64,000 bases of DNA from an uncultured Candidatus Saccharibacteria bacterium (GCA_965230975.1 OZ246402.1:101771-165770); one strand, 5' to 3'. Shown: positions 3,439 to 47,523, counted from the first letter of the stretch. Numbers and translations: made by a program. Notes: generated from the sequence alone by a model not told the origin.

Positions 3439-3525
3439 CGGAGAGTGTGAGATTCGAACTCACGATCCAATTGCTTGGACACTCGTTTTCGAGACGAGCC
3501 CTTTCGGCCACTCAGGCAACTCTCC
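3439..3525 (-). tRNA. tRNA-Ser (anticodon CGA), type II with long variable arm
   Basis: The reverse complement reads GGAGAGTTGCCTGAGTGGCCGAAAGGGCTCGTCTCGAAAACGAGTGTCCAAGCAATTGGATCGTGAGTTCGAATCTCACACTCTCCG. It has a 7-bp acceptor stem, a GTTCGAATC T-loop, a CTCGAAA anticodon loop (CGA), and no encoded CCA. Confidence 0.8.
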
Positions 3526-8701: not shown

Positions 8702-11700
8702 ATGAAACAGACCAAACTATTTCTTATAGCAACTGGCCTATTTGCAGTTTTAATTAGTACGTTTGGGCTTTTGAAAATATTTCATCCTCAAATCTTTGCA
8801 GATGGTGGAGATGTAACTCCGCCTACATTTAATTTTACAAGTGCTCCTACAGGTAATATTAGTGGTTCGAGCGTTACATATACTTTCTCAACAACTGATT
8901 CTGAATCTAGCATAAACAATATTGAGTATGCTCTAAATCCAGGTCCCACTCAAATTGTGCGAAAAATATATGTAGATGGCGTTCAAGTCGGCTCATCTCA
9001 CTACACATCTAATATTCCAGATATACTTGCAGATAACTTTACAATTGGTCAAGCAGGTGGCGTTGGGAGTAATTTTGCAGGTTCTATTGATGAAGTTAGA
9101 ATTTATAACAGGGCTTTAAATTCAAGAGAAGTTGATAACCTTTACGACTATCCGGCAGACACACTTAATGTGAAAATTCCAGTAGGTGGGACTATAGCCT
9201 CTTGGAACATGGATGGAGCATGGAATGGCACCCCCGGTGAAGTAACAGATGATCAAATAGGAATGAATGGGTCAATTCAGAACGGGGTAACGCAATCACC
9301 TGGTATTTTAGATGAAGCTGCAACATTTGACGGCGTAGATGATTACATTTCATTTGGAGATGTTTCATTGTTACCTTCTGGAAATAGTTACTACTCTATT
9401 AGTGCTTGGATTAAACCAGATGCAATGACTACTAGTGGCATTTTGGGTTGGGGAAACTTTGGTGCTACTTCATATGGTAGCAATGGACTTCTTTTACTAG
9501 ATACTGGTATTAATAACTTTTGGTGGGACGATGACTATTCTGAAACAACTGCAGACTTATCTGGTTCTTGGCATCATGTAGTTGTTACCTATGGTCCGGA
9601 CCGAATACCTTTAAACGCACAAGATGGAGTTTATGAAGAAACTTCTGAAGGTGCTACTGTTACCTTAAACGAAGTTGATTTCACTCTAGGAGAAGCTCAA
9701 ACCATAACTTTTTACTCTATAGATGAGTTTGGAAATACAGGCTCTACATCTTATAATTTTACATTTGTAGGTGATTCAGATGTGGATTTACCTAGCATTA
9801 CTTTTACAGAGTCACCTACGGGTCTGCAACCGGCCATTTTTACATATAGTGGAACAGCAACAGATGCTACTTCGAATATATCATACATAGACTGGCAAAT
9901 AGATTCTGGTAGTAGAAGCACTGTCTTTGCACTAGACGGAGATTATGATGAACAATCAGAGGGTTTTGAATTAGAGGTAAAAGCTTCACCTGAATTTGCG
10001 AATATTACGGGTACACACACCATAAAATTCTATGTGGTTGACATTGAGAATAACGAGCAAATGTATAGCTTTAACGTAGATGTTGATAGAGATGCTCCAA
10101 ACTGTACTCCTGGGTGGGTTTATCAAGAAAACCCTTACATAGGTAATACTGTAACATACGCAAATATTCACTGTACAGAAAATAGAGATCAAATAACAGC
10201 TGCTTACTATGATGTTTATCATGCTGTTGAAGGAACCCTAATTAGTCCTCAAAATATTAATCCCGTAGATGGGGTTTTCGATGAAAACTCTGAAGATTTC
10301 ACTTTTACTTTTACATTAGATGCCAATACAGATTTAGATGGGCCAATAATTGTTACTTTTAAAACGGAAGATGAAGCAGGTAATATAAGTTTAGATTTAG
10401 ACCCATTTGTTATTGAGTATGTAGACGATAGCGAACCTGTAATAAATCTAGACCAAGTAACTCCAGACCCGATCTCTGATACTACTCCTAAAATAACTGG
10501 TAGTTGTGTTGACGACACACAGTTTGATACAAACTCCTACATTAAATTAATTGAATATAATGTAGACGGAGGTGCTTGGAGCAATGTTGATTCATTAGAA
10601 GCACCTTATGAAGATAGTTATTCAGAAATATTCTCTTTTGAGCTACCAGAACAGTCAATTGGAAGCCATATAGTCAATATTAGATGTACAGACATGGCAG
10701 ATCAAGTATCTACTGATTCTGATACCTTTGAAATTGTAGCGGTAAACGAGGCATTATCTGCCGGCAACTTTTCTCATACAGATTCATTTACAGACCACAC
10801 TTTTCAAGACATACCCAACTCAACTTTAATTTGGGGTAATGGAAGGCTAAGATTAAAAGAAGATATAACAATTACAAGAAGTGTTATAGATAATGCAGAT
10901 TATCCTAACAGATATGCAGATGTTAGAAGTTATTATGGTGCAGTAAAAGACCCAGACGACTCAAATTTAATTTGGTATACAAAAAACAATAGAATTTATA
11001 AATATTTCATAAATTCTAATACAACTGAGGCATTGGACATGAATACTATTTTTGGATTTGATTTCTTTCAAGAATTACACAAAATTACTGTAAACAAATT
11101 TGGAACAAAGAAACTTTTGTGGGCACCAGATGCATATGGAATGTCTGTATACAACATTACAGATAATCAGACTGTAAGAATAACTATTACCGGTGGAGTT
11201 AACGAACTAGACCCAGATGTAGATAGAGGTAGATTAGGTGCTTACCTTACAACTGGTACACCTGTACCAATGGGTTACACAAACTTTATTTACTATAACT
11301 TTAATAACACGTTAACAAACACAGGAGATGATGTTACAACTCAGTGGCCTATAGATGCAAATTTCAGTGAAACAGATGCTTTAAGAATGTTTAGAGATAA
11401 AACAACAAATACTAACGATGTTTACTTAAGTTACTACACAAATGGCAAACTTGTTAAATTTAATGATAACAACACACCCAGTAACTTTGCAGATGACCAA
11501 GTGCTCAGTTATTCTGGATACACATCAATTTTTGGGTTTAGTTTAGATTCACAAGGAAGACTTATTTTTGGAACTGCTAATAACTCAAACGGAGAATTAT
11601 TTGTTGTTACTAACGATAATAATACCCCTTATATTGGTGGGGACGATACAATAACTAGAATAGCAACAAATAGGCAACTTGGTTTTGGGGGAGTGTTTGG

Positions 11701-14092
11701 AGTTGATTTCATGGAAGGTCAAAATGATGTAGGTGATCAAATTCTAGTAACAATGGCAGGCGGTGATATGGTCTACATTAATTTCAATGATACCTATACA
11801 GACTTATTAGATGATACCTTCATTCCGTTACCGGTTAGAGGAGGAATTAGGCCAGGAGATGTAACGGCTTTAATAATTGATTATGATAACCTATATGTAA
11901 ATATAGATACTTTAGGTTTTTATAAAGTACATTTAAACAGGGGTTGGGTAGATTCGGGAGAAGCCATAGGAGTTCCACAAAGACCTTCGCAAAAATTAAT
12001 ACTTGATAATTTTGTTGCAAGTGCAGAAACAGGAAGTAATATAGTTGCTGGCACTGTTCAAGAGCCTAACTTCTTTGAAAAATTGATAAATGCTTTTATT
12101 CCAAAAGTTAAAGCTGCAGAAAATGGTATAAGTTACTATATTTCTAATGATGATGGAGTAACTTGGCAGGAAGTTACGTTAGGACAAATTAAAAACTTAA
12201 ATCCAAACGACTACAGGGTTAAGTTTAAAATAGTTATGACCGAATTAACTGGACAAAGCCCTACTCTTCAGGATTATACAGTTAGTTTTGCAGGGTATAC
12301 TACACCACAGCAGGCTCAAGAGGCAACATCACTAAGCATTATTGCTCACCCAACATCTGTATTAAAGAACACTAATTTTAATATAACCGTCTCTGCTCTA
12401 GATACTTTGGGATTTGTGGTACCAACCTATTCGAATATCGTTACACTAGAGTTACTTAACAATGGTAATGTGGCATCCGGATTAACTCCATCTTCTATTA
12501 ATATTACTAATGGAACTGCAACAATTACTAATGCACAAGTGCAAAATACAGGAGTCTATAGAATTAGAGCAACTCAAGGTGCTTTGACTGCTCAATCTAA
12601 TCAGCTTACAGTGACCCAACAAAGCTTTATTCCTATATCTGCAAATGCTACATTGTCAGTAATTAACTTTGAGGCAGATAAGTACACAATAAAGAAAGGT
12701 GATTCTGTTACATTAACCTGGACAAGTGCAAACCTTGATACATTAACATTAACCCCTAACAAAGGAGTTGTAGACTCTACCGGTTCTTATACACTATCTT
12801 TAGATGAAACAACAGAATTTACCCTTTCGGGGACTGGTCCAAATGGAGAGCTCTCCTCTAGTCTAACCATTGTTGTACAAGATGAAACTTTACAAGATTT
12901 AACCCTTAAAACTTCTCAAGATATAAGTGTTAAACAAGGTGAAAAAGCTACTATAACATGGCAAACAACTGGTGCAGATACTGTATTTATCGATTTAATT
13001 GGGAAAAATGTAAGTTCTAAAGGTTCTTATGAATTTTACCCTACAGAAGATACGGTTGTCACAATAACCGCATTCCAAGGAGATAAATCTATATCTCAAA
13101 AAATAAAAATAAACGTGTTAAATGATAATAGCGAAGCAAACCAAGTTGTAGGAGTCTTATCACAGGTACCAACAGCAGGTGTATTTGTTTTAGGAATAAT
13201 AAACTCAGGTTTATTAGTAAGCTTATTATTGAACGTACTAACTAGTGTTCAAAGCAAACTTACATTAGACACCTTGTCAAATATACTTAGGATTATTGGT
13301 ATTATTCCATTCAAAAAGAGGCGTGGGTTTGTTTATCAAACAAACACAAGTAAACCGGTTGCTTTTGCAGTATTAAATATCCTAAGCAAAGGGAAAACGT
13401 TAACCTCAATAATTTCAGATCTAAATGGTATTTATTACGAACCATTTTTATCTAAAGGCGAATATATTTTAGATGTAAAGAGAGAGGAACATGCATTCCC
13501 AACCGCAAAGAAGAGGCCTGCACAGTTGACCGAATTTGATTTTTACAAAGGTGAAGAGCTAAACATTACTAGCAATAAGTTACAACAGGCAATTGTAATA
13601 CCAATGGATAAAACTAACATGTCAGATAAGAAGAGTCTAATAAACTGGAATAAAGTTAGCTTGTCGTTAACTAGACTTTTAGTGTGGTTACAATGGACAG
13701 TTTATCCTATGTGTGTACTTGCTCTTGTATTCTTGATTACATCTCCAAACATCGTTAATCTATTAGTATTTGTATTCTACTTTGTAATAGTTGCATTCAA
13801 GCTTAAAGAAAAGTTAAAAACACCATCTTTAGAAGGTTTGGTTTATGATAAAGAAGCCAACAAAGGAATTTCTGGAGTTGTAGTAGAACTTAGAGCAAAT
13901 AATCAATTAGTTGCTCTAGAAATTACAAATTCAAAAGGAAGATATTCTTTCTTTGTTCCAGAAGGTAAATATAGCATCCACTTATCTCACGAGCATTATG
14001 CAATGAGAACAGAATTCGGACAAGTTTTAGAAGTAGATATAAAAGATACAAAAAAGAAAATGAATTTTGGAATGGGTAAACTTTCTGCTTAA
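8702..14092 (+). CDS. giant (1796 aa) surface protein: signal anchor, 2x LamG-like (concanavalin-type) domains, Ig/Big-like and beta-propeller-like repeats, C-terminal polytopic membrane region with two CarboxypepD_reg-like domains
   Basis: N-terminal hydrophobic segment. LamG_3 motifs (NFTIGQAGGVGSNFAGSIDEVRIYNRALNSREVDNLY; ATFDGVDDYISFGD...SAWIKPD). Repeated TLTPNKGVVDSTGSYTLSLDETTEFTLSGTG Ig-like modules. C-terminal TM helices (LVWLQWTVYPMCVLALVFLITSPNIVNLLVFVFYFVIVAF) are interleaved with GISGVVVELRANNQLVALEITNSKGRYSFFVPEGKYSI (CarboxypepD_reg-like). Confidence 0.7.
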   Translation: MKQTKLFLIATGLFAVLISTFGLLKIFHPQIFADGGDVTPPTFNFTSAPTGNISGSSVTYTFSTTDSESSINNIEYALNPGPTQIVRKIYVDGVQVGSSHYTSNIPDILADNFTIGQAGGVGSNFAGSIDEVRIYNRALNSREVDNLYDYPADTLNVKIPVGGTIASWNMDGAWNGTPGEVTDDQIGMNGSIQNGVTQSPGILDEAATFDGVDDYISFGDVSLLPSGNSYYSISAWIKPDAMTTSGILGWGNFGATSYGSNGLLLLDTGINNFWWDDDYSETTADLSGSWHHVVVTYGPDRIPLNAQDGVYEETSEGATVTLNEVDFTLGEAQTITFYSIDEFGNTGSTSYNFTFVGDSDVDLPSITFTESPTGLQPAIFTYSGTATDATSNISYIDWQIDSGSRSTVFALDGDYDEQSEGFELEVKASPEFANITGTHTIKFYVVDIENNEQMYSFNVDVDRDAPNCTPGWVYQENPYIGNTVTYANIHCTENRDQITAAYYDVYHAVEGTLISPQNINPVDGVFDENSEDFTFTFTLDANTDLDGPIIVTFKTEDEAGNISLDLDPFVIEYVDDSEPVINLDQVTPDPISDTTPKITGSCVDDTQFDTNSYIKLIEYNVDGGAWSNVDSLEAPYEDSYSEIFSFELPEQSIGSHIVNIRCTDMADQVSTDSDTFEIVAVNEALSAGNFSHTDSFTDHTFQDIPNSTLIWGNGRLRLKEDITITRSVIDNADYPNRYADVRSYYGAVKDPDDSNLIWYTKNNRIYKYFINSNTTEALDMNTIFGFDFFQELHKITVNKFGTKKLLWAPDAYGMSVYNITDNQTVRITITGGVNELDPDVDRGRLGAYLTTGTPVPMGYTNFIYYNFNNTLTNTGDDVTTQWPIDANFSETDALRMFRDKTTNTNDVYLSYYTNGKLVKFNDNNTPSNFADDQVLSYSGYTSIFGFSLDSQGRLIFGTANNSNGELFVVTNDNNTPYIGGDDTITRIATNRQLGFGGVFGVDFMEGQNDVGDQILVTMAGGDMVYINFNDTYTDLLDDTFIPLPVRGGIRPGDVTALIIDYDNLYVNIDTLGFYKVHLNRGWVDSGEAIGVPQRPSQKLILDNFVASAETGSNIVAGTVQEPNFFEKLINAFIPKVKAAENGISYYISNDDGVTWQEVTLGQIKNLNPNDYRVKFKIVMTELTGQSPTLQDYTVSFAGYTTPQQAQEATSLSIIAHPTSVLKNTNFNITVSALDTLGFVVPTYSNIVTLELLNNGNVASGLTPSSINITNGTATITNAQVQNTGVYRIRATQGALTAQSNQLTVTQQSFIPISANATLSVINFEADKYTIKKGDSVTLTWTSANLDTLTLTPNKGVVDSTGSYTLSLDETTEFTLSGTGPNGELSSSLTIVVQDETLQDLTLKTSQDISVKQGEKATITWQTTGADTVFIDLIGKNVSSKGSYEFYPTEDTVVTITAFQGDKSISQKIKINVLNDNSEANQVVGVLSQVPTAGVFVLGIINSGLLVSLLLNVLTSVQSKLTLDTLSNILRIIGIIPFKKRRGFVYQTNTSKPVAFAVLNILSKGKTLTSIISDLNGIYYEPFLSKGEYILDVKREEHAFPTAKKRPAQLTEFDFYKGEELNITSNKLQQAIVIPMDKTNMSDKKSLINWNKVSLSLTRLLVWLQWTVYPMCVLALVFLITSPNIVNLLVFVFYFVIVAFKLKEKLKTPSLEGLVYDKEANKGISGVVVELRANNQLVALEITNSKGRYSFFVPEGKYSIHLSHEHYAMRTEFGQVLEVDIKDTKKKMNFGMGKLSA

Positions 14093-34212: not shown

Positions 34213-34941
34213 ATGATTTTTAAAGAAATTTTAAACATTGGGAGCAATGAGATTGAATTAACTACCCAATCTCAGTTATCTAAAAAAACTATTTCAGAAA
34301 TACAATTCTTAATTGATTTTTTTTCAAAAGAATTAAATCATAATATTAAGGAATCTTCTGCATGGAAATTTAATAATGGGCAAATCAGAATCCCAATTTA
34401 TGTAAAGCCAGAATTTATTCAGTATTTCAAGTTTGTTTATAAAATATTTTCTAATCACCCAGATACTTTTGAACCTTTTTCAATTTCTTTTTTTAAAATT
34501 GATTATGTTAGCTTTGACAATAACTCAGAATATATAATTAAAAATACTGACTTTAAATTTGATACCTCATTTTTTCGATTAAACTTTATAGTTCAATACA
34601 TTGCAGAATACTTAAAAGAAAAAAAGTTTGATACATTTTTAATTCAATGGGATGAGAAATATATTGCATTTGGCAATTATGACTGGGAAGTTCTTCCAGG
34701 GGGTCATAAATATATTTTAAATAACTCTTCTGCTATTTTTTTTCACTACTCACCTTCAGGTTTTGAATCACATAAATTTGGGGCCATTCAAAATGAACTA
34801 AGTGAATCAGATGCACTAGTATTAGGCCAAGATTTATCTGAACTAAAGGTTTTAACCCCTCAAATCAACTACCTAAATACAAAAACTGACTTAAGCAAGT
34901 TTTCTTACGAAAATAATATTAAAGTGGTGTTTTTGGACTAA
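34213..34941 (+). CDS. hypothetical protein
   Basis: 242-aa ORF, soluble, Phe/Tyr-rich, no motif. Confidence 0.4.
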
Positions 34942-35219
34942 TGTTTGTGTTTAAGATTTTCCGGTACAGGGTCAAAGCCTCCTTTGCTTAGTGGATTGCA
35001 TCTTAAAATCCGTTTAAAACCCATCCACCCCCCTTTAAGTAGGCCAAACCTATCAATTGACTGATATGTATACTCTGAGCAACTTGGGGTAAATATGCAC
35101 ACCCTATACCCTCCGGCTAAATATGGAGCCCAAAATGAGTGATCAAAAGATAAAGTCTTTTGATAGATCCTAATTAGTAACTTTGCTATGTTTTTTGGAA
35201 GATTGATTATATTTTTCAC
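34938..35219 (-). CDS. yidD: membrane protein insertion efficiency factor YidD
   Basis: [48 protein letters not shown] is the canonical YidD signature. Confidence 0.85.
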
Positions 35220-35273
35220 AAAATAATTTTAACATCTTAGAATTTTTTAATTACTAAAAATTCTATACTATAA

Positions 35274-35291
35274 GTTATCCACATGGATAAC
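35274..35291. promoter_or_regulatory. DnaA-box inverted pair (oriC / dnaA autoregulatory element)
   Basis: gTTATCCACAtggataac. It contains the perfect consensus box TTATCCACA, and on the opposite strand TTATCCATG. It sits 107 bp upstream of the dnaA start in an AT-rich spacer. Confidence 0.55.
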
Positions 35292-35397
35292 TTTTCATGT
35301 ATAATAAAAAAAACCTTGATGATACTAACTTTCACAACGCACTTTGCATAAAAAGTTTACTCAATAAGTTCAATCTAGTTATACAACTATATAGTTT

Positions 35398-36810
35398 ATG
35401 AAAATTAAAGACGAAAAACAGCTTTGGAAAACTGCCTTAGCACAAATTGAAATAAAAATAGATGCGCCAACTACATTTAGAACTTTTTTCCAAGAAACAA
35501 AACTCATATCTATTGATGGAAATACTGCAAGAATAGGTGTTCCAAATCCATACACCGCAGAGTGGTTAAAAAATAAATACGAAAGAATGATAAAAGACAC
35601 ACTTAGCTATGTTTTTGGAGAAACCTTAAATCCTGTTTTTGAAGTTTTGCAAAGAGTTGATTCTGAACCAGAACCGATTTCCGAAATAATGAATACAGAA
35701 AAACAACCCCTTTTATCTATGGAAAATGGTGTTATGGGAAATGTATTAGATTTGGTTAGAAAAGCTGGCCTTAATCCAAAATACACCATTTCAAATTATG
35801 TAGTTGGTAATTACAATATGATGGCACATGCAGCCGCAATTGGGGTTATTAACAATCCTGGAACTGCTTACAATCCATTATTTATTCATGGAAAAACTGG
35901 GCTTGGTAAAACTCATTTAGCACAAGCAATTGCGCGCTCAATAATAGAGAGAGATCCCTCAAAAAGGATTTTGTATACATCATCTGAGGGTTTTATGAAT
36001 GATATGGTTAAAGGTATTAAAAGTGGCCAAAGTGATAGAAACAGATCAAAGTACAGATCAATAGATTTATTGATCGTTGATGATATGCAGTTAATTTCAA
36101 AATGGGTTCATACTCAAGAGGAATTTTTTAATACTTTCAATGAATTATTTAATAATGGTAAGCAGATTATCCTTATTGCAGATAGAAGACCTGAAGAGAT
36201 TCAAAATATAGAAGCAAGGTTAAAAACAAGAATGCAAGGAGGTATGGTTGTAGATATTCAAAGCCCTGATTACGAAATTAGATTGGCAATTTTAGAAAAG
36301 AAGGCAGAACTTGGTGGAGTTAATTTAAAACCTCATGTTATAGAATTTATTGCCAGGTCAATTACCGACAATGTAAGAGAACTTGAAGGTGCTTTACAAA
36401 AAGTTTCTTTGTTTAATCAAATGAAGCCCAATGGAGATTTAACTTTAGAAGAGGTTGCTCACATGATTGGTAAAGATATTTCTTCAAAACGAGAACAGGT
36501 AAAAGTTCCGCAGGTTTTAAAAGAGGTGGGAAAAACTTTTAATGTTAGTGTTAAAGAGCTTAAGGGACCAAGAAGAACTAAAGATTTGGCACTAGCAAGG
36601 CAAGTTGCCATGTACATTTTAAGAGAGGAATTCAACTATAAGCTTGAAGAGGTTGCCAACTTTTTAAATCGAGAAGATCACACTACAGTGATTCATGCTA
36701 TTGATAAAGTTAAAAGCAAAATGATGTTGCAGGATGGTTTTAATAGACAGGTTGCAAAATTAATAACTACAATACAAGATAGTGCTACTGTAACACAGGA
36801 TATGGAATAG
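35398..36810 (+). CDS. dnaA: chromosomal replication initiator protein DnaA
   Basis: Walker A GKTGLGKTHLAQAI, Walker B LLIVDDMQ, sensor motifs, and a C-terminal DNA-binding domain LALARQVAMYILRE. Confidence 0.95.
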   Translation: MKIKDEKQLWKTALAQIEIKIDAPTTFRTFFQETKLISIDGNTARIGVPNPYTAEWLKNKYERMIKDTLSYVFGETLNPVFEVLQRVDSEPEPISEIMNTEKQPLLSMENGVMGNVLDLVRKAGLNPKYTISNYVVGNYNMMAHAAAIGVINNPGTAYNPLFIHGKTGLGKTHLAQAIARSIIERDPSKRILYTSSEGFMNDMVKGIKSGQSDRNRSKYRSIDLLIVDDMQLISKWVHTQEEFFNTFNELFNNGKQIILIADRRPEEIQNIEARLKTRMQGGMVVDIQSPDYEIRLAILEKKAELGGVNLKPHVIEFIARSITDNVRELEGALQKVSLFNQMKPNGDLTLEEVAHMIGKDISSKREQVKVPQVLKEVGKTFNVSVKELKGPRRTKDLALARQVAMYILREEFNYKLEEVANFLNREDHTTVIHAIDKVKSKMMLQDGFNRQVAKLITTIQDSATVTQDME

Positions 36811-37377
36811 CTATTTAGCTTCTAATAAAAGTTCCTGATTTCTTAAATATGTTAGTTCAACATCGGGACTACACTTGTAATGGTTTCTTAATATGCTGTT
36901 AAGCTTTTCACCTTTTAATGAGTTAAATCTATCTTCGCTTGTTCTAATAATAGTTTCTTTGCCATCCACACTAAACTTTACTTTGTATAATGTAGTTATA
37001 CTTCTTGGAGCTGTTTCTGTAAATATTTCGCAACTTCCAGTATAGTAAGATTCCCCCTCTAATAAATCTTTAGTGCTCACGAATACCATAAAAATACCTA
37101 TTCCAAAAAACACAATTACACCTAATAACCATCTTGTATATATACTATTGCCAAGTTTTTTTCTTCTTTTGAATATTAGATATAAGATACTTCCAGATAC
37201 TGATACTATTGCTAGATTAAGCGTGGCTTGACCAAAATTAATTACCCTCCAATTTTCTAAACTTATTATGTTTTTATAGTCAATAATAAAGTCTGTTGTT
37301 ACTATTAAAAATATAAGTGACAAGATTATTAATATAGTCACTAACGTTTTAATTAAAGTTGTTTCTTTTAATTTCAT
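36811..37377 (-). CDS. hypothetical membrane protein (3 TM helices plus a C-terminal soluble domain)
   Basis: 188 aa. It is convergent with dnaA (stop-to-stop adjacent). No motif. Confidence 0.45.
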   Translation of the reverse strand: MKLKETTLIKTLVTILIILSLIFLIVTTDFIIDYKNIISLENWRVINFGQATLNLAIVSVSGSILYLIFKRRKKLGNSIYTRWLLGVIVFFGIGIFMVFVSTKDLLEGESYYTGSCEIFTETAPRSITTLYKVKFSVDGKETIIRTSEDRFNSLKGEKLNSILRNHYKCSPDVELTYLRNQELLLEAK

Positions 37378-37501
37378 TTATAGGATAACTTAAATATTTA
37401 ATTATACTTTATTGTGTTCTTTGTTGCTAATTTGTATTGCGGCACAATGTTTTTCTTATCTGCAAGTGCTAATATCCTTGTATAAATATTAATCAAGTTT
37501 T

Positions 37502-37981
37502 ATGTTTTTTATTTGGGGATGGGGTCATAGAAAAAACAAAGATTTAGGCTCTGTAAATAAAGCTATTTGTTCTAACTGTTCTAATATTACAAAGTTTAGA
37601 ATGCTAGATCATTCTGAGTGGTTTACCTTCTTTTTTATTCCTATTATTCCGTATTCAAAAAAGAAGTTTGTTTATTGTCCCGTTTGTGATTATGCTATTG
37701 AAATAGACGAAGATAACGCTTTAGAGTTAAAGCAGATTGCAAATCTTAATAATGCTTACGATAAAGGTGACTTAAGTGAAGATGAATACGAGAAGTTAAA
37801 CAATAAGCTTAATAGTATTTTAGAAATTGGCACCGAGACTTTAAAATCGGATGTTGTTTTTAACAAAGTGAGTATAGTACAAGAACCAGAAACAGGCTTA
37901 ACTAAATTCTTAAAAAGCAAAGAGTTAAAAATATTACTCTACTCTGTGTTTGTTATTGCAGTGTTGTATTTGGTGTTTTAG
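37502..37981 (+). CDS. zinc-ribbon plus SHOCT-domain protein with a C-terminal TM helix
   Basis: CSNCSN...CPVCDY forms a Cys4 ribbon. LKQIANLNNAYDKGDLSEDEYEKLNNKL is the SHOCT motif. The C-terminal helix is ILLYSVFVIAVLYLVF. Confidence 0.5.
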   Translation: MFFIWGWGHRKNKDLGSVNKAICSNCSNITKFRMLDHSEWFTFFFIPIIPYSKKKFVYCPVCDYAIEIDEDNALELKQIANLNNAYDKGDLSEDEYEKLNNKLNSILEIGTETLKSDVVFNKVSIVQEPETGLTKFLKSKELKILLYSVFVIAVLYLVF

Positions 37982-38075
37982 CTAAATGCCAGCACCTATA
38001 AAATCAAAGACGATGTTCTCTTTTTCATCATACAAAGCATCTGCAGAGGCTTTAATTCGATATTTGCTCATATTA

Positions 38076-38594
38076 TTATTTACTACCTTTAAAAACTTTT
38101 CCATCTATACTATCTACCCACTCTTCAAGTACATCTTTAGGAAATTTAATATTTATTAAGTGATCTTCTGGAATGGGTGTAAATCCAGAGAGAAGTTCAC
38201 CTAAAGAATATTCCTTATACAAATCCCTAAGTTTGTAATAAAAGAAAGATCTTTCTGGCTCTAAAGCATCTGATAATCTGTGATAAAAAGCCTTATTGTT
38301 TAAAATAAAGTCAAATCCTGTGTATCTCACTTTCTTAAATAAACCAGTCCGATAATTCTTACTGATCCATTCCGCTGGCTTTCGATCATCTATAACTTTA
38401 AAAAGATTTGAGTCGTATTCTTTAGTTACAAAATAATCATATGTAATTACAACATCGTCTAATCTGAAATCCATAATGTTATCATCTAGAATTTCATATT
38501 GCTTTTTTCCTTTAGCATCTTCTGAAATTCCAATAACCAAGTACTTTTTGCCTTTGGTTATAAAGTCTTTGTCTGTTAAGCTTTCCAAGATCAT
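38076..38594 (-). CDS. hypothetical protein; candidate immunity protein for the upstream RHS toxin
   Basis: 172-aa ORF that starts 6 nt after the RHS stop on the same strand. Soluble, no motif. Its position is the canonical one for an Rhs immunity gene. Confidence 0.45.
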   Translation of the reverse strand: MILESLTDKDFITKGKKYLVIGISEDAKGKKQYEILDDNIMDFRLDDVVITYDYFVTKEYDSNLFKVIDDRKPAEWISKNYRTGLFKKVRYTGFDFILNNKAFYHRLSDALEPERSFFYYKLRDLYKEYSLGELLSGFTPIPEDHLINIKFPKDVLEEWVDSIDGKVFKGSK

Positions 38595-38599
38595 ATATT

Positions 38600-41500
38600 T
38601 TATCTAATAATTAAGCTACTCATGCTAGTGATTTTAATCTGCTTACTTATTGGTAATATTGTGCTTTGCAAATAGTGTACTGTATATTTATTACCTCCTG
38701 CAACTCGAACATATTCAACTTTATTCCAAAGTGAGCTAAAGAGACGTGGGTCAGCAAGTTTTTTCCCTCCTGAACTAAATATAATATTTCCTTTTCCTAC
38801 AGCCTCTTCCATAACTAGTTTTTCTGTCAGGTTTGATGGAGAAGACGCATATTTAGGAATGCCCTTTGCAACAACTTTTGAAGCAATGGAGCTAATTCCA
38901 TAGCCTATTGCAGCGGTTACCCCCCCTGTTACACCACCTACAACTACAGCTTGAGCTAAACCTTCGACTGAAAATTGTTTTTCTTGAACTGCAACTTGTG
39001 CAGTATAGATAATAGCACCCGTCGCTGCACCAACTGCAATACCTACTCCAATTGCGCACACTACTGTCGCTAAACAAGCTGCCCCTGCTAACGCACCTGC
39101 CCCTACCGTTAATGCCGTAGACACAGCTGCACCTATTATTTCCCACTTATTTTCTTTGAAGAAATTACCTATCTCTTCCCAGAACATTCCACTAAAATCA
39201 TTCCCATTCAGCGGATCTACTGGATACACATAATCATTCTGTGTTCCACCTTCTACAGGGTCAACTTGCAAGAATCTACCTAATTCTGGAACATAAACTC
39301 TTGCACCCATTTGAATAAAATCAATATCAAACCTAACCTCTGTATCCCTTAAAGCACTACCACCAAAACCATAATCTGTAGTTGCAGCAATTTGAACCCC
39401 AAAAGGATCGTACCTAAAAATACTACCTGTATTCTTAGCAAGCACATTACCAGTTGAACTCATAATACTGTATTCAGAAACATCTGCTTTAACGGTCAAC
39501 CTTAAACCTGGTAAAGAAACATACCTTTCAATAATTGTACCTGCACCATTCTTTAAAACATCTGCAGAACTAGAACTACTACTAAACCCATAAACCTTAA
39601 CACTCTCACCCGAATTAAAATTACTGTTAATAACTCTACCTAAAACATCTCGAGTATATTGAATCCTACTACCCTCTTGAGAAACCGCTACATTTTGATC
39701 TGAAACATCATATTCAAAACTCAAATTACCCATCTCTATTGTATTACCGTGAGAATCATATTGAATCCCAGCAAACTTATTATTAGACGCTTGTATTAAT
39801 TTATCTGCAGCATCGTAACAATACTCGTTAGTAACAGTCACACCCTCAATAGTCAAAGAATCTGATGTCCTATTAAAATTCTTGTTTGAATTTTGAAAAG
39901 AACAATTAGTTGCCTGATTATAGTTATATGCAAATTGCCTATCTCCATAATCTGCTGCAACTAACCTATCTGCTTTATCAAAAGTATAGCTCTGATTATA
40001 AACTTGAGAATCTTGTGTAAACTTTTGAGCTAAAGTCAAACCTGATTGAGATTTAGTCAATTCTTCTGAAATAATTGTTCCATCACTTTGCCTCCAAGTA
40101 TATTTAATAGGCCTTTCTAAAGAATCTCTTGTAGTCCCTAAGTAAGCCAATTGTCCAGCCTCTGGATAAGTAATTGTAGAAACTCTACCTAAAGAATCGT
40201 AACTTACATTTGCATAAACAACTCCATTGTAAAGTTTAGATGTAACTTGAGAATAATCATTGTAAGTCCAAGACTCTGTACCGACTTCAGAAACCTTTTG
40301 AGTTAACCTATTTTGATTATTGTAAGTATAATTTGAAACACTTCCTAATGCATCTGTGTATTTAACTAAATTACCTAAGTAATCGTATTCAGAAATACTT
40401 ACAGTAGAACCATCCGTTACTAATCTTTTTAGTGGATTTCCACCATATGCAAAGTTATTAGTAACAGTCTTACCAGTCTTTTCATTGTTACTTGCAATAA
40501 CCTTGCTTTCTACTCTTCCTCTTGAATCATAATTTGTACAGTTCCATGCCTCGTCATTAATTTTACTCGCAACAACCCTACCAGAAGCATCATAAACAAC
40601 TTGTGTGCTTCTACCTACTTGTAAACCATCTCCATCTGGGTCTACCTCGGTTTTACCCTTTGCAAAACCAGCTTGAGAAACGGGGTCTGATGCAGGTGTA
40701 CATGGATTATCTACACTTTCTGTTGCTCCATAATATGAATATTTAGTAACAGATCCACCTGCTGAAGTTTTTGAAAGTTGCCTAAAGTAACCACTACCTT
40801 GAGGCTCATAACTTGCACTACTTTGATAATTTAAACCATTTGGATCTAAGACTTTATTTGCTACAAGACCGTATGCTGGGTCTTGATAGTTTGTTTTAGT
40901 TTCAATATTGCCGAGTTGTTGATCATAAATAACGTTTGTTGTAGCCAAGTTGTAACCAGGTGCTAAGTTGAGCCATTTATTAGTTTCTGTAATACCAGGG
41001 CCAGAAATTGTTGCATTAATAACAGGTGTAGTACCAAAACTTGCAAAATCTAATCTTACTCTATAAACCTTGCCTGCTTCTAAGGCAATTGAACCAGTTT
41101 TTTCAACACTTGTTGCAGATCTATTTGCCCAATTATCAATAATCAGTTGATCGTTAACAAATAATCTTGCACCGTCTGTATGTTGAAGTTTAAAGTTATA
41201 GGTTCCATTTTGAGCAATGCTTAATTTCCCTGTTAAAGAGAACCCTACTCCATCCATTCCCGCCTCTTTCGTAATGGGGAATGCTTGGTTTCTATAATCA
41301 AAATTCATTACTGCTTTGTCGTTATTGATTCCAAACTTGTGTAATTTTGGACTTCCGAATAACGTTGCTGTTGTTGGAGTATTACTTTTAACTTGATAAT
41401 AAGCAACTGCTGGACCTTGTAACCCCTCATCATATCTAGTTTCTGTTTTTGGAACTTGATTGACATAAGTAGATAATGGTTTTCTATCTGTACCAAACCA

Positions 41501-44500
41501 ACTTGCAGGTGCTGGGCCATAACTTTCTAAAGGTCTATCGTCTGAATCATAAATTGTAGTGCTTTTTAAACCTGTAGGACCAGTTGTACTTAAAATAATA
41601 TCTTTTGCACTATCCCATTCAGTTGTTGTACACAAAGCTATGTTGTCGCAAATCTTTGTAGTTCTATACTTAGAATCAAATTCTAAATATTTTGAATAAC
41701 CTACAGGTTCAGGTATTCCAACTAAATGTTGTTTAGAAGCTCTTGGGTAATATTCTAAGGTATGCTGTAAATTGGAATTCCCCGTATTACTTGGAAAGTA
41801 AACTTTTGTAGCTCTACCTAAAGCATCGTATTCAAAGTTGTAGCTAGCACCTTGTTCGTTTGCATTTCTTAAACCAGCCATTATGCTATCAATCATTCCT
41901 GTGTCTCTTAAAGAAGCTATTCTTCCATCTGTGTAGTAACCATACTCAAAAGATGCATCACCCGGGTAGTCAATTTTGTACAAATTGCCTTTATAGTAAT
42001 TAAACTTTGTCCATTTACCATCTGTTGTATAGAATGCACATAAGTGACCTGTTGGAATAGCATAGTCACCGCTAGTTGCGCTACACTCTGCTTCGCCTTG
42101 ATAGTAAAGTTTTCCAAACCTTGAGGAATCTACACCATCTATAATTCTTCTTAACCTTGTAAACCCACCTACATTTGCATACTCGTACTTTAATCCTGCT
42201 GGATTTTTATCATCATATGCAGTACTGGTTTCTTTTAATTTAAACTGCCCCGAGTTATCTAGTACATCATAAATATAAGTTGTGCCAGCTGTATCTGTAA
42301 AGGTATACGTACCATCATTATTTTTAACTAACCAACCATCCTCATTTACAGGTGATTTGTAACCTCCATTGTTGTAAGTGTATAAAGATTCTGTTCCATC
42401 TGTAGATATCATTACAACATCTTGATTTGCTTTTACTTTTAATGATTCAAAAGGGATAGAGCCATTAGAATCTAATGTTAAGTTCCATCCACTTGGCAAA
42501 GCTTTTACTTCTGGAATTAAATATTTACTTTCAATAACACCATTTAAACTAGGTCCAGTCCATTTTAAGGCTACTGATGCACCACCAGTTTTTTCGTACA
42601 TATCTACTACAATTTTGTTTGGTTGACCTGCCGTTAATTGAACACTGCCAGACCAAGCCTCAGTGTACCCATGGTCTGTCCAATTTTGAGCGATAATATT
42701 TCCATTTAAAGTAAGTCTGGAACCATCATCTGAACCAACTCCAAATGTATAATTGCCAGTAGTGGGAGCTATCACATAACCTTCATATCTAACTAAAAAG
42801 TTATCAACAGGGCCACCTACAACTGGTGAATACCCATCCCAATTATAGTTAATTTGAGGTTCATTTCTTAGTAAGAATCTAGTTGTATTTACATTAAAAT
42901 CATGGGTGCCATTGTCGTAATAATACTTACCTGTTAAACCCGTATTATTACTTAATGGAACAGGTGCTGTTCTAAAATATTCTGAAGGGACTACTTTTTG
43001 TGTACCATCTGGCATTTGAACATAAAGAATCGCTGTTGCTCCACCTCCAAACTCTACCATCTCCATTTTAATTGGCCATAGTTGACCCTCTGTAAGTGCT
43101 ACAGTATTGCCCATCCACTTTGTTCCGCAACATGGTGCATCTAAAATTACTGTGTTATTTCCATAAACTTTTATATTGTCATCTCCCATTACTCCAAATT
43201 TATAGTTACCTGTTGTTGGAGCAACAAAGTAACCTGACCATTGAGCCGAGAAATTATCTACACTTACTATTCCTGGGTAAGGAGACCCAGTTAGCCAATA
43301 ATTATCAATATTTGCATTTATAGTTGAATAGATTGGATCTCCGCTAAAAGTAGTGTTATTCCAATATTTAGCAGATAAACCCTCTCTGGTTATTGTTGGG
43401 GTATTGTATTCTAAGCCGATTCCAATATTCCCACCCAATGCATTCATTGAATGCGAGCTATTTGTTGTATATGCATTACCTGTTGCTAAGTTAACAGCAA
43501 AAGGACCTGCTTCATCGTAAGCTTGTGTAGGGTCTTTTCCTGCTCTAAAGTCCGTTTTGAAAGTTGCACTAAAAGACGGGCTTCCATGTTGATAATAATC
43601 GTCTCTAACGTATACACTCCACCTATATGTCTGACCATTTTGTAAAATACCATCTACCACAGTCATTGTTGGTGATGTAGTAAAACCACTTCTTTGTACA
43701 ATAGTATTATTGCTATCCCACAAAATAAATTCGTGGGTTAAGGTGTCTCCATCAGCATCATTTGCAGGGTTAGCTCTTAGGTTAACAGTTGTTGTTGTTA
43801 CTACAGAATTATCTGCAGGTGCACTTAAAGTAGCGTTATTATTTGGAATGTTGTTATAGGCCAAATTTAGTCTTGCATTGGCTGCATCAAAAGCTTTAAA
43901 TGTATCATATCTGTTTTCCTCTCCCCAAATAATTAACCAACCTCCATAAACTTTATTATCTGACAACCATTGGATTAAAGGTTTCATATCAATGTAACCG
44001 GAGGTTGTCATACGAGCACTCATTATAGGAGACCACCCAACGCAGTTAAAACTTATGCAACTTGCCCATGCAACGTTAATTTGTGCATTTGTATTGTAAA
44101 AACCGTTCCATCGATATGATTTGTAGCCCATTTGCAAATATAAATTTGCTCCTAAAACTTGCTTCCCAATTATTTCATCGTAATTAAATCTAACTACACT
44201 TCTCCAAGATTTTTGACCACCATCATTCAATCCACCTGTATTCATATCGCAATAAACATAATCACATGCATATCCATTACTTTTGTAAGAATAATATGCC
44301 CTAGATCCATTTTCTACTGTTTTTGTTGGGTAAACTGCAGGGTCTATTGATATGGGGAAGTTTTCTGGTTTTAATGATTTTAGCCAGTCTGCATTAAGAC
44401 TTACTTTAACTGTATTACCCTCAATTGTTTGACTTATTACATCTTCTGTAACTGGCCCAATGTTAGTAGCAATAATATATAGTGGTTCAATTACGAAGAC

Positions 44501-45334
44501 TTCATTACCAACTTTAATATTTAAAGCGCCTTTTTCTTCCGTTGAATATGATAATTCACCTCCAACAACTTCAAATTCAAAGTTTGGATTTTTTATGTAC
44601 TTATTTAATACAATATATTCTTTAATATAGTCATCATGAAATTCGTAAACCAAATCTACATTTTCCCAAGCATTTCTATAAATTACTGCACCTTCTAATT
44701 CTTCAGGTTTTACATTATTTATATTTTTGGGTTTGAAAGTTAGTTCTTGACCAGCTACATTAATCGTTATTCCATTAGAAAGTTTTTTATATTTAACATC
44801 TAATTTGCTTGAGTCTATCTCTAAATCTTCTTTGTTCTTTTTTACATTGTTTTTTATCTCTTTAAATGAATCATTCTCTTTTGTAAATCTATCTGTCAAA
44901 CTTTGCTCTACAATATTTAAACCTTCTTGTGTAGTATATTTTTTTGTTTTCTCATCTATATTTTTTGTATTTGAAGTATTTTTCTTTAGGTTTTCTATTT
45001 CTTCATTTTTTATAGACTTTAACTCTTGTTTATTATCGTTTGCAGTTGTACCACTTAACTTATCTGAATAATCAACCCCACTACCTAAAGGATATGGTGA
45101 TTCTTGTACTTTTAATGGGTCTATCCTATCTGCTTTCTTTATTTTGGAGTCTTGATAATTCTTATTCTCTTTGATTGCTTTCGAATTTAATCGAACAAAC
45201 TCAGATTCAGATACTTTCTTGCGTAACTCAATTATATTTTGTGCATTAATGGCTATTGGCTGAAATGTTTGAAATATTACTAAGAGGCACAGCAAGACAC
45301 CTACCCTACTTAAGTGTTTTAGGATTATATCCAT
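38600..45334 (-). CDS. secreted RHS/YD-repeat polymorphic toxin (2244 aa) with three PA14 domains and a variable C-terminal domain
   Basis: Signal peptide [34 protein letters not shown]14 hallmarks [26 protein letters not shown] and [14 protein letters not shown]. More than 15 YD repeats ([28 protein letters not shown], and others). The Rhs core ends [38 protein letters not shown]. The ~190-aa C-terminal tail has glycine-zipper hydrophobic stretches. Confidence 0.85.
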
Positions 45335-45570
45335 ATAATAAAGAGTAAAAAATATAGATTTGGTTTACAGCTATATAAATTTACCCTTTTATACCAAAAT
45401 ATTTTTTACTCCGCATTGTGCCGTGGCGCAAATTTTGAGGTTTTTTTCAAAAAATTCGTTGTGTTTAGAAATTAAATTTAATTATTACATTGAAATACTT
45501 GGTGGTAAAGCTTTATCCCAAGTAAAAAACATCACAGGTAATGTTTGTTACTATTGTCTAATATCATAAA

Positions 45571-45758
45571 TTAATCCATATTACTTTAACAGTTCTAAAC
45601 TTCTCCACCTGGCTATAATGCTTTATAGCTGAAAGCTTTCTAAAAGATATTCCTAAATTACACCAAGATAATTCCACACTAGATAATTTCTATTAAGCTT
45701 GTAGGTAAATAGTTTCAACGAAGATGCGATAGAATTAATCCACTCAACTTTTCCACAT
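45571..45758 (+). promoter_or_regulatory. cluster of DnaA-box-like motifs plus an AT-rich tract upstream of dnaN (candidate oriC half)
   Basis: There are five same-orientation TCCA(C/T) cores: TTAATCCAT, TTCTCCACC, AATTCCACA, TAATCCACT, TTTTCCACA. They score 7/9, 7/9, 6/9, 7/9 and 8/9 against TTATCCACA. An AT-rich stretch follows at 45781-45860. Confidence 0.3.
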
Positions 45759-45866
45759 ATACGAAATGGCGAGATTGCTGATATAATAAAAATATTAGAA
45801 GACATATACACATATCAACATGCCCTATAACTATAAACTTCTACTTTTTAAAATATAATATTAGTT

Positions 45867-47012
45867 ATGGAAATCAAATTAAACCATACAAACTTAGCAA
45901 AGTCTTTACAATATACAAGTAGAGCTGTAAGTGCCAAACCAAACATACCAGTATTGAGTAATGTACTTTTAGATGTAACTAAAAATGGATTAAAACTTTC
46001 TGCAACTAATTTAGACATGGGGATAAACGTGTGGATACCTGGGTTGGTAGATCACGAGGGAAAGATTACTGTATCAGCAAAATTCATTTCTGACTTTGTA
46101 AGTGCATCTAGTGGAGACAATGTAGAGTTAAAATTAGATGGAAGTGTCGTAACTGTTAAAACAGATAAATCAAAAGCAAATTTTAATACAATATTAGCAA
46201 ATGAATTTCCGGTACTTCCAGAAATTTCCGAAACACCTCTCTTTAAAATCTCGGCAAAAGAATTTATGACATCTATGGATAAAGTCATATTTTCCTGCTC
46301 TACCGATATGAGCATTGGTAAGATTCAACAAAGTGGGGTTTTATTTGAACTTAATAAAGAAGATTCAGAAGTAATTTTTGTAGGTTTAGACGGTTTTAGA
46401 CTTTCTAAAAGAAATGCTAAGGTAAAAGATTTAGCAGAAACATTGCCTACAGAACAAATTATAGTGCCTGCAAAATACTTGGCTGAAGTTCAAAAGATTG
46501 CATCAGATTACGTAGATTTAGATGAAATTGAAGTTTATTTAAGTAAAAATAACTCTCAAATAATATTCAAATTTGAAGAGATTGAATTTAGCATTAGATT
46601 AATAGAAGGTCCTTACCCTGAATACAAAAGAATATTACCAGACTCTGCATCATTTACTTTTGAGGTAAAAAGAGGTGATTTAGAGAATGCTATTAAAGTT
46701 GTTAATACATTTGCAAGAAGTAACTTAGGTTACAAGACTTTGTTTGATTTAGATTTAGAAAACTCTGCTATTAAATTAAAATCAATTGTTGCAGAGGTTG
46801 GTGAAAATGAATCTATTGTTAATGTTACAGAAGTTCAGGCCGATACAGACTTAAATACATCTTACAACTTAAAGTTTATTCAAGATGTTGTTTCTCATAT
46901 TAAAGGAGATACTATTATTTTCGAAACAAAAGGCCCTTTGGCTGCGTCAGTATTTAAAGATAAATCAGATGCAAGGTTTGTACATTTGCTAATGCCTTTA
47001 AGAAGAGAATAA
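45867..47012 (+). CDS. dnaN: DNA polymerase III beta subunit (sliding clamp)
   Basis: 381 aa. N-terminus MEIKLNHTNLAKSLQYTSRAVSAKPNIPVLSNVLLDV, with a three-domain length. Confidence 0.9.
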   Translation: MEIKLNHTNLAKSLQYTSRAVSAKPNIPVLSNVLLDVTKNGLKLSATNLDMGINVWIPGLVDHEGKITVSAKFISDFVSASSGDNVELKLDGSVVTVKTDKSKANFNTILANEFPVLPEISETPLFKISAKEFMTSMDKVIFSCSTDMSIGKIQQSGVLFELNKEDSEVIFVGLDGFRLSKRNAKVKDLAETLPTEQIIVPAKYLAEVQKIASDYVDLDEIEVYLSKNNSQIIFKFEEIEFSIRLIEGPYPEYKRILPDSASFTFEVKRGDLENAIKVVNTFARSNLGYKTLFDLDLENSAIKLKSIVAEVGENESIVNVTEVQADTDLNTSYNLKFIQDVVSHIKGDTIIFETKGPLAASVFKDKSDARFVHLLMPLRRE

Positions 47013-47016
47013 ATTT

Positions 47017-47523
47017 TTAGCTTTCAGTAAGTAAACGGTCTATAAGATCTTCAGGTATATTTTCATGACTGTAAACAGTTATTCGGTTATCCCTAAGTAA
47101 TTGAGCTACTACTCCGCTACCTGGAATTTTATTTCCTTTAAACTGACCATCATAAACAATTGAAGATCCACAAGAAGGACTATTCTCTCTTAAAACAGCA
47201 ATAGTGATTCCATTATCAAGACACATCTTTAAAGTGTTTTGCGCACCTTGTATAAATTGATCAGTAACATCTTTTCCTCTACTTCCATCTTCATTCCAGG
47301 TTTCATATATTCTTGCATTACCTGCTAAAACATCTGCGGCAGTTTTTCCTCTTTCTATTTCTGCCGGTTTTCTGGGAGTTGAAAATCCAGCGGAAACTTC
47401 TGCACAAAAATGCACAGCTTTACCATTCTGAATTAGTTTACTCAGTGTTGGTATATCTAAACAAGTCCCATTAAATTTAGTCGGATGCCCAACTAGGCAA
47501 GAACTTACAAGTAATTTATCCAT
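47017..47523 (-). CDS. DUF523-family protein (TudS-like putative thio-nucleobase desulfurase)
   Basis: Cysteine motifs SSCLVGHPTKFNG and ENSPSCGSS are characteristic of DUF523. Confidence 0.55.
   Translation of the reverse strand: MDKLLVSSCLVGHPTKFNGTCLDIPTLSKLIQNGKAVHFCAEVSAGFSTPRKPAEIERGKTAADVLAGNARIYETWNEDGSRGKDVTDQFIQGAQNTLKMCLDNGITIAVLRENSPSCGSSIVYDGQFKGNKIPGSGVVAQLLRDNRITVYSHENIPEDLIDRLLTES

Follow-up and report, generated by a model that had tools for sequence, protein, structure and literature searches.

An Rhs polymorphic-toxin module between dnaA and dnaN as a probable derived insertion in a species of Candidatus Dojkabacteria

Here we describe a 64-kb window of DNA (OZ246402.1:101771-165770; one strand, ~32% GC, coordinates counted from the window's start) from a species that we assign to Candidatus Dojkabacteria within the Candidate Phyla Radiation (CPR/Patescibacteria), the DnaA of which is 55-85% identical to DnaA proteins from metagenome-assembled genomes (MAGs) and metagenome contigs that are mostly so labelled. 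In this window dnaA (35398-36810, plus strand) and dnaN (45867-47012, plus strand) are separated by four genes, one of which codes for an Rhs protein of 2244 amino acids. Based on the comparison with related loci and on the variants of the locus within the species, we consider it highly probable that an 8.8-kb Rhs polymorphic-toxin module was inserted between dnaA and dnaN and has been evolving in place. Judged by its predicted proteins the island is a bona fide Rhs polymorphic-toxin/immunity locus; what sets it apart is its somewhat unusual position, whereas the type of system is already known.

The dnaA-dnaN interval in the window and in related loci

A preliminary description of this DNA had placed four genes between dnaA and dnaN, and all four are present as open reading frames (ORFs), with both flanking genes confirmed by Pfam: at the left flank DnaA matches Bac_DnaA (3.3e-57), Bac_DnaA_C and DnaA_N, and at the right flank DnaN matches all three DNA_pol3_beta domains. 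The gene next to dnaA, tm188 (36811-37377, minus strand), codes for a membrane protein with a C-terminal soluble domain, and its stop codon abuts that of dnaA. It is followed by zn159 (37502-37981, plus strand), the candidate immunity gene imm172 (38076-38594, minus strand; no family match) and the Rhs gene (38600-45334, minus strand), whose product bears PA14, RHS_repeat and TIGR03696 Rhs_assc_core matches. The zn159 product had been described as a Zn-ribbon/SHOCT protein; its Zn-ribbon is recovered by Zn_ribbon_15 (4.7e-10), its SHOCT-like segment matches the SHOCT model only below the cut-off, and it ends in a hydrophobic tail.

We collected relatives by their DnaA from genome and metagenome collections and placed dnaN and the flanking genes by tblastn. 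In the closest of these the two genes are adjacent, with dnaA-dnaN spacers of 281 bp (L025, DnaA identity 85%), 477 bp (L026, 82%), 314 bp (L027, 73%) and 295 bp (L005, 71%). A neighbor-joining tree of DnaA places the window as sister to L025, then L026 and then L005, and dnaA and dnaN are likewise adjacent in the outgroups L019 and L032. The window and its relatives have the same flanking gene order, up187-up242-dnaA to the left and dnaN-femX-orf326 to the right, and we therefore interpret the difference as a pure insertion with no rearrangement. None of the cassette genes was found within 10 kb of dnaA in any relative, and the dnaA-dnaN interval of all related loci is without the island, which amounts to a presence/absence polymorphism. 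Synteny thus bears out the earlier view of the cassette as accessory, and we propose that the Rhs module is very probably a derived insertion on the lineage of this Dojkabacteria species.

The limits of the insertion follow from local alignment of the spacers. Homology begins at window position 45599 against L025, 13 nt past the L025 dnaA stop codon, and at 45581 against L026; the segment 45599-45866 aligns with the whole L025 spacer and also with the spacers of L026, L027 and L005, whereas the 263 bp preceding it (45335-45598) show no significant similarity to the relatives' spacers. As these spacers match only ~45581/45599-45866, the island proper extends from 36811 to ~45598, or about 8.8 kb. 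The cassette had originally been given as 36811-45866; its left end stands, while its right end has to be moved back to ~45581-45598, with 45599-45866 (plus strand) being retained ancestral dnaA-dnaN spacer. Similarly, the "530-bp non-coding region" noted before is indeed present (45335-45866, 532 bp) and proves to be composite, comprising the island-specific upstream or promoter region of the Rhs gene at the right end of the insertion (45335-~45598, minus strand) and an ancestral remainder. Three independent short contigs start 30-41 bp upstream of dnaN, L022 at 45826 and both L023 and L024 at 45837. We considered these breaks as the right edge of the island and rejected them, since they lie inside a block conserved across species and the spacer homology starts at 45581-45599. 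They probably represent an assembly-graph break caused by co-occurring relatives rather than a strain breakpoint.

Both junctions recur outside the window at identities of 98.9-100%: the left one in contigs L001 and L003 and partly in L002, the right one in L001/L020 and L021, with the contigs covering the junctions deriving from at least three separate sequencing runs. As both were recovered in independent assemblies, the order dnaA-island-dnaN is not chimeric.

The preliminary description had started from the premise that dnaA and dnaN are almost universally adjacent, which does not hold in this class: among the related loci containing both genes they are adjacent in only 6 of 21. In a further 12, between 0.9 and 5.3 kb separates the dnaA stop codon from a conserved block upstream of dnaN, and ORFs of at least 50 amino acids occupy this interval in all except L018; in the remaining 3, dnaN is inverted and lies upstream of dnaA. 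The cargo varies by lineage and consists mostly of hypothetical proteins, some being housekeeping-like by inspection, and none of the cargo of other lineages is related to the four island genes. The insertion point is always upstream of the conserved dnaN block in the loci examined. Because unrelated cargo occupies the same spacer in more distant Dojkabacteria, the dnaA-dnaN spacer looks like a recurrent permissive site for accessory DNA in this class, a hot-spot behavior inferred from 21 loci rather than from a population-scale analysis.

Several further observations concern the same region. In L013, L014 and L017, dnaN lies on the opposite strand upstream of dnaA with its conserved box/promoter block facing dnaA, which suggests that the origin region has undergone inversions in this class. 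The only recurrent occupant noticed in the dnaA-dnaN interval is a conserved gene of 174-276 amino acids, on the minus strand directly upstream of the dnaN block in one subclade (L007 12221-13051, L036 2453-3283, L008 11423-11953 and L033 11433-11957). On the other side of dnaN the window has a DUF523/2-thiouracil-desulfurase-family gene (47017-47523, minus strand) between dnaN and femX that is missing from every related locus, and the dnaN-femX junction of L026 contains two unrelated genes; hence, the dnaN-femX interval looks like a second variable spot beside the origin region.

Toxin, immunity and companion genes of the Rhs module

The body of the Rhs protein (39185-45334, minus strand) begins with an N-terminus that resembles a signal peptide on inspection, and contains about 600 amino acids with no assigned domain, PA14 domains, a YD/RHS shell and the Rhs core. 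There are three PA14 domains of the PA14/GLEYA lectin type (1.6e-57), two located before the YD shell and one inside it. RHS_repeat (PF05593) was recovered at 1.4e-10 with the whole protein and at 1.1e-15 with a sub-segment, alongside TIGR01643 (2.1e-05), and the TIGR03696 Rhs_assc_core match at amino acids 1975-2050 scores 38 bits against a cut-off of 32.5. The core has the paired motifs DPVEG (amino acid 2025) and DPLNG (amino acid 2040), with 10 residues between them. Neither Pfam nor NCBIfam revealed PAAR, LXG or VgrG domains in the protein.

Past the core lies a variable C-terminus of 194 amino acids (2051-2244; 38600-39184, minus strand), which combines a glycine-zipper transmembrane linker (~2051-2140) with a domain of about 100 amino acids. 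The linker is partly common to the Rhs homologues P0066 and P0067; the homologues P0066-P0068 differ past it, P0068 carrying a GIY-YIG domain. Many short database proteins similarly comprise the ~45-residue core end and a glycine-zipper linker followed by other tips, such as RNase, Colicin_M and Colicin_E5. An exhaustive search of 1.84 billion representatives returned only 6 other clusters for the ~100-residue domain, which include both domains located behind Rhs ends and stand-alone proteins of ~100 amino acids; residues invariant among them include D2195, P2196, W2203, K2205, H2220, Y2221 and K2234. From the architecture of the protein we predict that this domain is the toxin, of an uncharacterized family. 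The adjacent imm172 starts 5 nt past the Rhs stop codon on the same strand, and unrelated genes for a 130-residue protein, a TPR protein and a DUF7674 protein replace it in alleles with an alternative toxin; in L041 the gene in the same position codes for Imm26. Its position and its co-replacement with the toxin make imm172 the candidate cognate immunity gene.

The ~45-residue core end is also 50-73% identical to that of four short proteins from Actinomycetota (P0034, P0042, P0063 and P0064, from Microbacterium, Curtobacterium and Cellulomonas), a likeness that could reflect a common Rhs lineage in monoderms or exchange. A 20-nt inverted repeat with 95% complementarity joins the 5' leader of the Rhs gene (45349-45368) to a site 684 nt into its coding region (44645-44664); by a rough estimate about 0.1 such pairs would be expected by chance in a 12-kb region.

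Contigs carrying other versions of the locus reveal how it has changed. The 2.2-kb contig L038, recovered in a different sample, opens with the end of the Rhs core (89% nucleotide identity to window 39181-39244) and diverges exactly where the core stops. Its C-terminal region is unrelated to that of the window and is followed by genes for a 130-residue, a TPR and a DUF7674 protein, after which similarity to the window resumes, at 92% identity, in the 3' end of zn159. Contig L004 is 100% identical to window 34583-36831, that is, through dnaA and the 21 nt past its stop codon (36811-36831) that form the last codons of tm188, and is unrelated thereafter; past this left junction it has the same alternative TPR, 130-residue and toxin genes at 95% identity to L038. 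Retention of the 21-nt tm188 remnant indicates that L004 arose by a deletion in which zn159, the DUF7674 gene and most of tm188 disappeared. A longer-contig search for the L004 allele returned only L038, so that the alternative alleles are seen on the left side only. In both L038 and L004 the alternative C-terminal region directly follows the conserved ...DPVNGNDFSG. Thus, strains of this species exchange C-terminal toxin and immunity genes at the Rhs core end, in the manner of classic Rhs polymorphism. The preliminary description had offered Rhs-type recombination as a possible mechanism of insertion; such recombination accounts for the exchange of toxin and immunity genes between strains and does not explain the insertion of the whole cassette. 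In addition, contig L003 (4235-4237, equivalent to window 39497-39499) has TAG in place of TTG at Rhs codon 1946, a change that splits the gene and leaves a C-terminal ORF of 287 amino acids (cluster P0001); a nonsense allele and a sequencing error would each account for it. Taken together, one species presents three alleles of one Rhs locus and, among them, an exchange of toxin and immunity genes where the core ends, a loss by deletion and perhaps a nonsense mutation, and we regard this set as direct evidence of actively evolving interbacterial conflict in Patescibacteria.

The remaining two island genes recur with Rhs genes elsewhere. Three full-length Rhs homologues, 54-58% identical to the window's protein, were found in other Dojkabacteria, none of them near dnaA or dnaN. 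The closest, P0066 (58%), is on L039, a different contig of the same MAG as L005; on L039 a zn159 homologue (Zn-ribbon/SHOCT, 43% identity) lies divergently upstream of it. Homologues of tm188 end the arrays located downstream of Rhs genes in L039 (19138-19671) and L040 (14378-14938), with 31-33% identity to the window's protein and E-values of 1e-12 to 1e-18; a Pfam search with tm188 yielded only a sub-threshold match to FixH. From this recurrence, zn159 is predicted to be a conserved companion of the Rhs gene, tm188 might have either a conserved accessory role or one in immunity, and the four island genes read as one travelling module. The locus also draws attention to an uncharacterized family of predicted toxins of ~100 amino acids and to two conserved companion genes.

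The promoter regions of the module provide a further link. Only two sites in the 64-kb window match the 21-nt motif AATTTG-N9-ACAATG perfectly, and each is in a promoter region of the island: AATTTGTATTGCGGCACAATG at 37429-37449 (plus strand), 53 nt upstream of zn159, and a second copy at 45414-45434 (minus strand), 80 nt upstream of the Rhs start. Five perfect matches were found among 434 kb of loci from relatives (L039 9802-9822, 9932-9952, 17816-17836 and 19708-19728; L040 4263-4283), four of which are upstream of module genes, these being the Rhs gene, the Zn-ribbon gene and a downstream peptidase gene in L039 and the Rhs gene in L040. An HTH/GAF regulator is encoded beside the module of L039. 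The distance to the Rhs, Zn-ribbon and array genes is about 50-80 nt, and about 115 nt to the called start in L040; the form of the motif in L039 is the palindrome TTGTATT-GT-AATACAA. Its occurrence in three species suggests a shared operator of the module recognized by a dedicated regulator, and its position at the module's promoters implies that the module carried its own regulation along.

In its logic the locus is closest to the WapA/WapI-type Rhs toxins of the monoderms Bacillus subtilis, Listeria and Streptococcus suis (PMC8636562; PMC12704120). It has in common with them a YD/RHS shell, paired DPxxG motifs in the Rhs core, a variable C-terminal toxin and a small immunity gene directly downstream, and it displays strain-to-strain replacement of toxin and immunity genes. 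These toxins start with a signal peptide instead of a type VI secretion system (T6SS) adaptor, and the N-terminus of the island protein resembles such a peptide on inspection. It differs from them in the three PA14/GLEYA domains, one of which is in the shell, the ~600 N-terminal amino acids with no assigned domain, the glycine-zipper transmembrane linker, the uncharacterized toxin family, the Zn-ribbon/SHOCT and tm188-family companions and the CPR/Patescibacteria host, and in being known from its genes alone. With the T6SS-linked Rhs systems of enterobacteria (PMC3482391; PMC8636562) it shares a conserved core, a displaceable toxin and immunity pair, recombination at the core end and a lack of self-mobility. 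Unlike those systems, the island is without a PAAR, VgrG or Eag component or a T6SS, and the window contains no downstream orphan toxin fragments. The Rhs core of the enterobacterial systems has a paired DPxGx aspartyl-protease signature with its motifs 17 residues apart (PMC8636562), as against 10 residues between the DPxxG motifs in the island protein.

DnaA boxes and the conserved block upstream of dnaN

The island places dnaA ~8.8 kb from a cluster of DnaA boxes proximal to dnaN, and the preliminary description had concluded that the insertion splits the presumptive origin. This we cannot support: the DnaA-box/promoter block is intact and travels with dnaN, and the insert lies beside it and not within it. 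Both the dnaN-proximal block and the putative operator of dnaA are uninterrupted, and we therefore interpret the origin-like element as displaced from dnaA rather than split.

About 110 bp upstream of dnaA there is a palindromic DnaA-box pair, GTTATCCACATGGATAAC (35274-35291), with a perfect DnaA box, TTATCCACA, at 35275, and most relatives have an equivalent palindrome, TTATCCAC(G/A)TGGATAA, upstream of their dnaA. A promoter-like site (TCCACA-16-TATAAT, 35278-35305) has its -35 element overlapped by the box pair, and based on this overlap the pair is probably an autoregulatory operator of dnaA. On the far side of it is yidD (34938-35219, minus strand; Pfam YidD, 4.8e-24), a conserved left-flank neighbor that belongs to the usual gene context of the origin region.

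In the retained spacer, DnaA boxes are present at 45601, 45670, 45736 and 45749, all in one orientation, together with an extended -10 element, CTGATATAAT (45778-45787, plus strand), and a highly conserved stretch, TATACACATATCAACA ... CTATAACTATAAACTTCTAC..., reaches the dnaN start. An alignment of 20 loci from across the class reveals that the final ~135 bp before dnaN are conserved, including the boxes at 45736 and 45749. This block always travels with dnaN and is kept in all three arrangements of the two genes (adjacent, with intervening cargo, and inverted). It has no obvious Shine-Dalgarno sequence and no match in Rfam. We propose that it could be an unwinding element, a DnaA-trio region or a regulatory 5' untranslated region, and that 45599-45866 as a whole is a candidate for the core of oriC and/or for a DnaA-regulated dnaN promoter. 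The block (window 45730-45866) is more conserved across the class than much coding sequence, its features being two tandem DnaA boxes, CTGnTATAAT, a near-invariant CACATATCAACA, and CTATAACTA...CTTCTACTTATTAAAA.

Across the whole window TTATCCACA with at most one mismatch occurs 21 times against 21.7 expected, indicating no enrichment. With box counts at the chance level, the support for these elements comes from their conservation across relatives rather than from their number. The skew at four-fold degenerate sites, calculated from few G/C counts in this AT-rich 64-kb window, has only a broad minimum at ~47-55 kb.

In this reduced-genome CPR lineage, accessory DNA has repeatedly occupied the stretch from dnaA to the origin-like DnaA-box block, and it appears to be tolerated there because dnaN has its own compact control block conserved throughout the class. 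This has a bearing on the annotation of origins in CPR genomes and on the choice of origin-proximal positions that accept inserts, for example for genetic tools.

The proposed insertion and its alternatives

Putting these observations together, we posit that the module (36811 to ~45598) would have landed within the few bases that follow the dnaA stop codon and precede the ancestral spacer's first DnaA box, as a unit comprising a putatively Sec-exported PA14/YD-repeat Rhs gene, an immunity gene, a Zn-ribbon/SHOCT gene and a tm188-family gene with their own promoter and operator-like motif. The site would tolerate the insert inasmuch as dnaN retains its DnaA-box/promoter block and dnaA its upstream operator, and the insertion would have occurred with no site-specific recombination machinery, the conserved dnaA and dnaN flanks perhaps serving as good arms for homologous recombination in both the spread of the module and the exchange of its alleles. 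Thereafter, toxin and immunity genes would have been swapped by recombination at the Rhs core end, and one allele would have lost tm188 and zn159. By analogy to WapA, the Rhs protein would be exported by the Sec pathway, its PA14 lectin domains might bind glycans of neighboring cells, the YD shell might autocleave at DPVEG/DPLNG, the glycine-zipper linker might help to deliver the ~100-residue toxin, and imm172 would protect sibling cells.

Several points weigh against this reconstruction. All three alleles of the species already carry the Rhs locus, and as a consequence the timing of the insertion depends on comparison between species whose DnaA is at most 85% identical. We recovered no donor site, no microhomology at the junctions and no empty-site allele within the species, and L002 and L038 come from one sample and not necessarily from one genome. 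The cumulative GC skew over the 64 kb is dominated by gene strand, the 6.7-kb Rhs gene alone causing a large drop from 38 to 46 kb, and the conserved dnaN-proximal block is only a candidate for a functional oriC. Searches with the predicted toxin domain and with imm172 against Pfam, NCBIfam, PADLOC and PDB returned no match, and the AlphaFold models built from single sequences for imm172 and the toxin domain, with pLDDT of 33 and 37 respectively, are unusable. Toxicity and immunity are predicted from architecture, as are Sec export and lectin targeting.

The first alternative concerns the meaning of the position, which might be adaptive either by raising the dosage of toxin and immunity genes through proximity to the origin or by coupling Rhs expression to initiation through binding of DnaA. 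The promoter region of the Rhs gene does abut the DnaA-box cluster, the first box being ~265 bp from the Rhs start, and the gene would be co-oriented with the leftward fork if initiation took place at 45.6-45.9 kb. Against this, three other Dojkabacteria have their Rhs homologues away from dnaA and dnaN, other species carry unrelated cargo including housekeeping-like genes in the same spacer, and the module has its own conserved motif. The dosage argument in particular, which the preliminary description had made, is weakened because homologous modules sit elsewhere in other genomes; moreover, a large dosage effect depends on multifork replication, and bacteria that are ultra-small and grow slowly are not expected to replicate in this way. 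We consider an adaptive placement unlikely.

Insertion on the lineage of this species also has to be set against an ancestral Rhs locus between dnaA and dnaN, from which the adjacency in relatives would have arisen by repeated precise deletions. Many more distant Dojkabacteria do have genes between dnaA and dnaN, and the L004 allele shows that deletions happen here. However, dnaA and dnaN adjoin each other in the successive sister lineages L025, L026 and L005, in L027 and in the outgroups L019 and L032, and as the spacers of the adjacent lineages align end to end with 45599-45866, at least three clean independent losses would be required. Furthermore, the cargo of other clades is unrelated to the cassette, and the genome of L005 has its Rhs homologue elsewhere with the same companion genes. 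An ancestral locus is accordingly a poor candidate, one we hold to be very unlikely.

Much the same low probability attaches to the idea that the cassette is the remnant of a self-mobile element, such as an integrative element, prophage or transposon, that integrated site-specifically beside dnaA. It would be consistent with the presence/absence polymorphism among species, with the presence of homologues at a different genomic site in each carrier genome and with the slightly higher GC content of the island (33.5% against 31.8% in the rest of the window), although the latter is no strong anomaly. Yet neither the island nor the 10 kb to each side of it contains an integrase, transposase, relaxase or phage gene, and a search of the flanks for direct and inverted repeats returned only short matches at the chance level; the preliminary description had likewise seen no integrase, transposase or direct repeats. 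The sole tRNA of the window (3439-3525) is far from the island and offers no target, PADLOC defense-system models have no match in it, and the non-coding gaps of the island, at 94-263 bp, are too short to conceal a decayed recombinase gene. We also rejected a self-mobile origin in that 36811-38600 has no DNA similarity in a plasmid collection and the Rhs protein has no relative among viral contigs. Lastly, an assembly chimera is barely conceivable: several short contigs do end close to the junctions (L002 at 36858) or begin there (L022, L023 and L024 at 45826-45837), but the latter breaks fall in the cross-species conserved block where co-occurring relatives would tangle the assembly graph, and the 81-kb contig L001/L020 together with L003 and L021 from other runs spans the junctions at 99.96-100% identity.

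The preferred reading, a module inserted with no recombinase of its own at a permissive site, has parallels elsewhere. Integrase-free recombination hot spots flanked by conserved core genes are known, and the staphylococcal "oriC environ" with SCCmec is an origin-proximal accessory region in which SCCmec depends on Ccr recombinases and on an att site located in rlmH. As in the oriC environ, accessory DNA in Dojkabacteria recurs in the same core-gene interval near the origin with content differing by species or strain; unlike SCCmec, nothing comparable to Ccr or att was found at the island. Similarly, in Mycobacterium tuberculosis Beijing strains the dnaA-dnaN intergenic region contains IS6110, a transposase-encoding insertion sequence of 1.36 kb, which is likewise a lineage-specific insertion tolerated in the dnaA-dnaN spacer beside the origin (PMC3701491). 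The island differs from IS6110 in being an 8.8-kb toxin module with neither a transposase nor repeats.

Extending this reading, we tentatively advance a joint conjecture that we regard as doubtful in its entirety: Dojkabacteria might possess a distinct, self-contained Rhs delivery module, made up of a Sec-exported PA14-lectin Rhs protein, a Zn-ribbon/SHOCT protein and a tm188-family membrane protein, with a common palindromic operator (AATTTG-N9-ACAATG) and a toxin of a new family, which relocates with no recombinase and for which the dnaA/oriC junction is a recurrent landing pad. The Rhs module of an episymbiotic CPR bacterium might also be aimed at its host cell rather than at kin. Finally, the window codes for a second very large predicted protein (8702-14092, plus strand; 1796 amino acids) with Laminin_G_3 and CarboxypepD_reg domains, and the organism thus appears to invest in large adhesin-like proteins.

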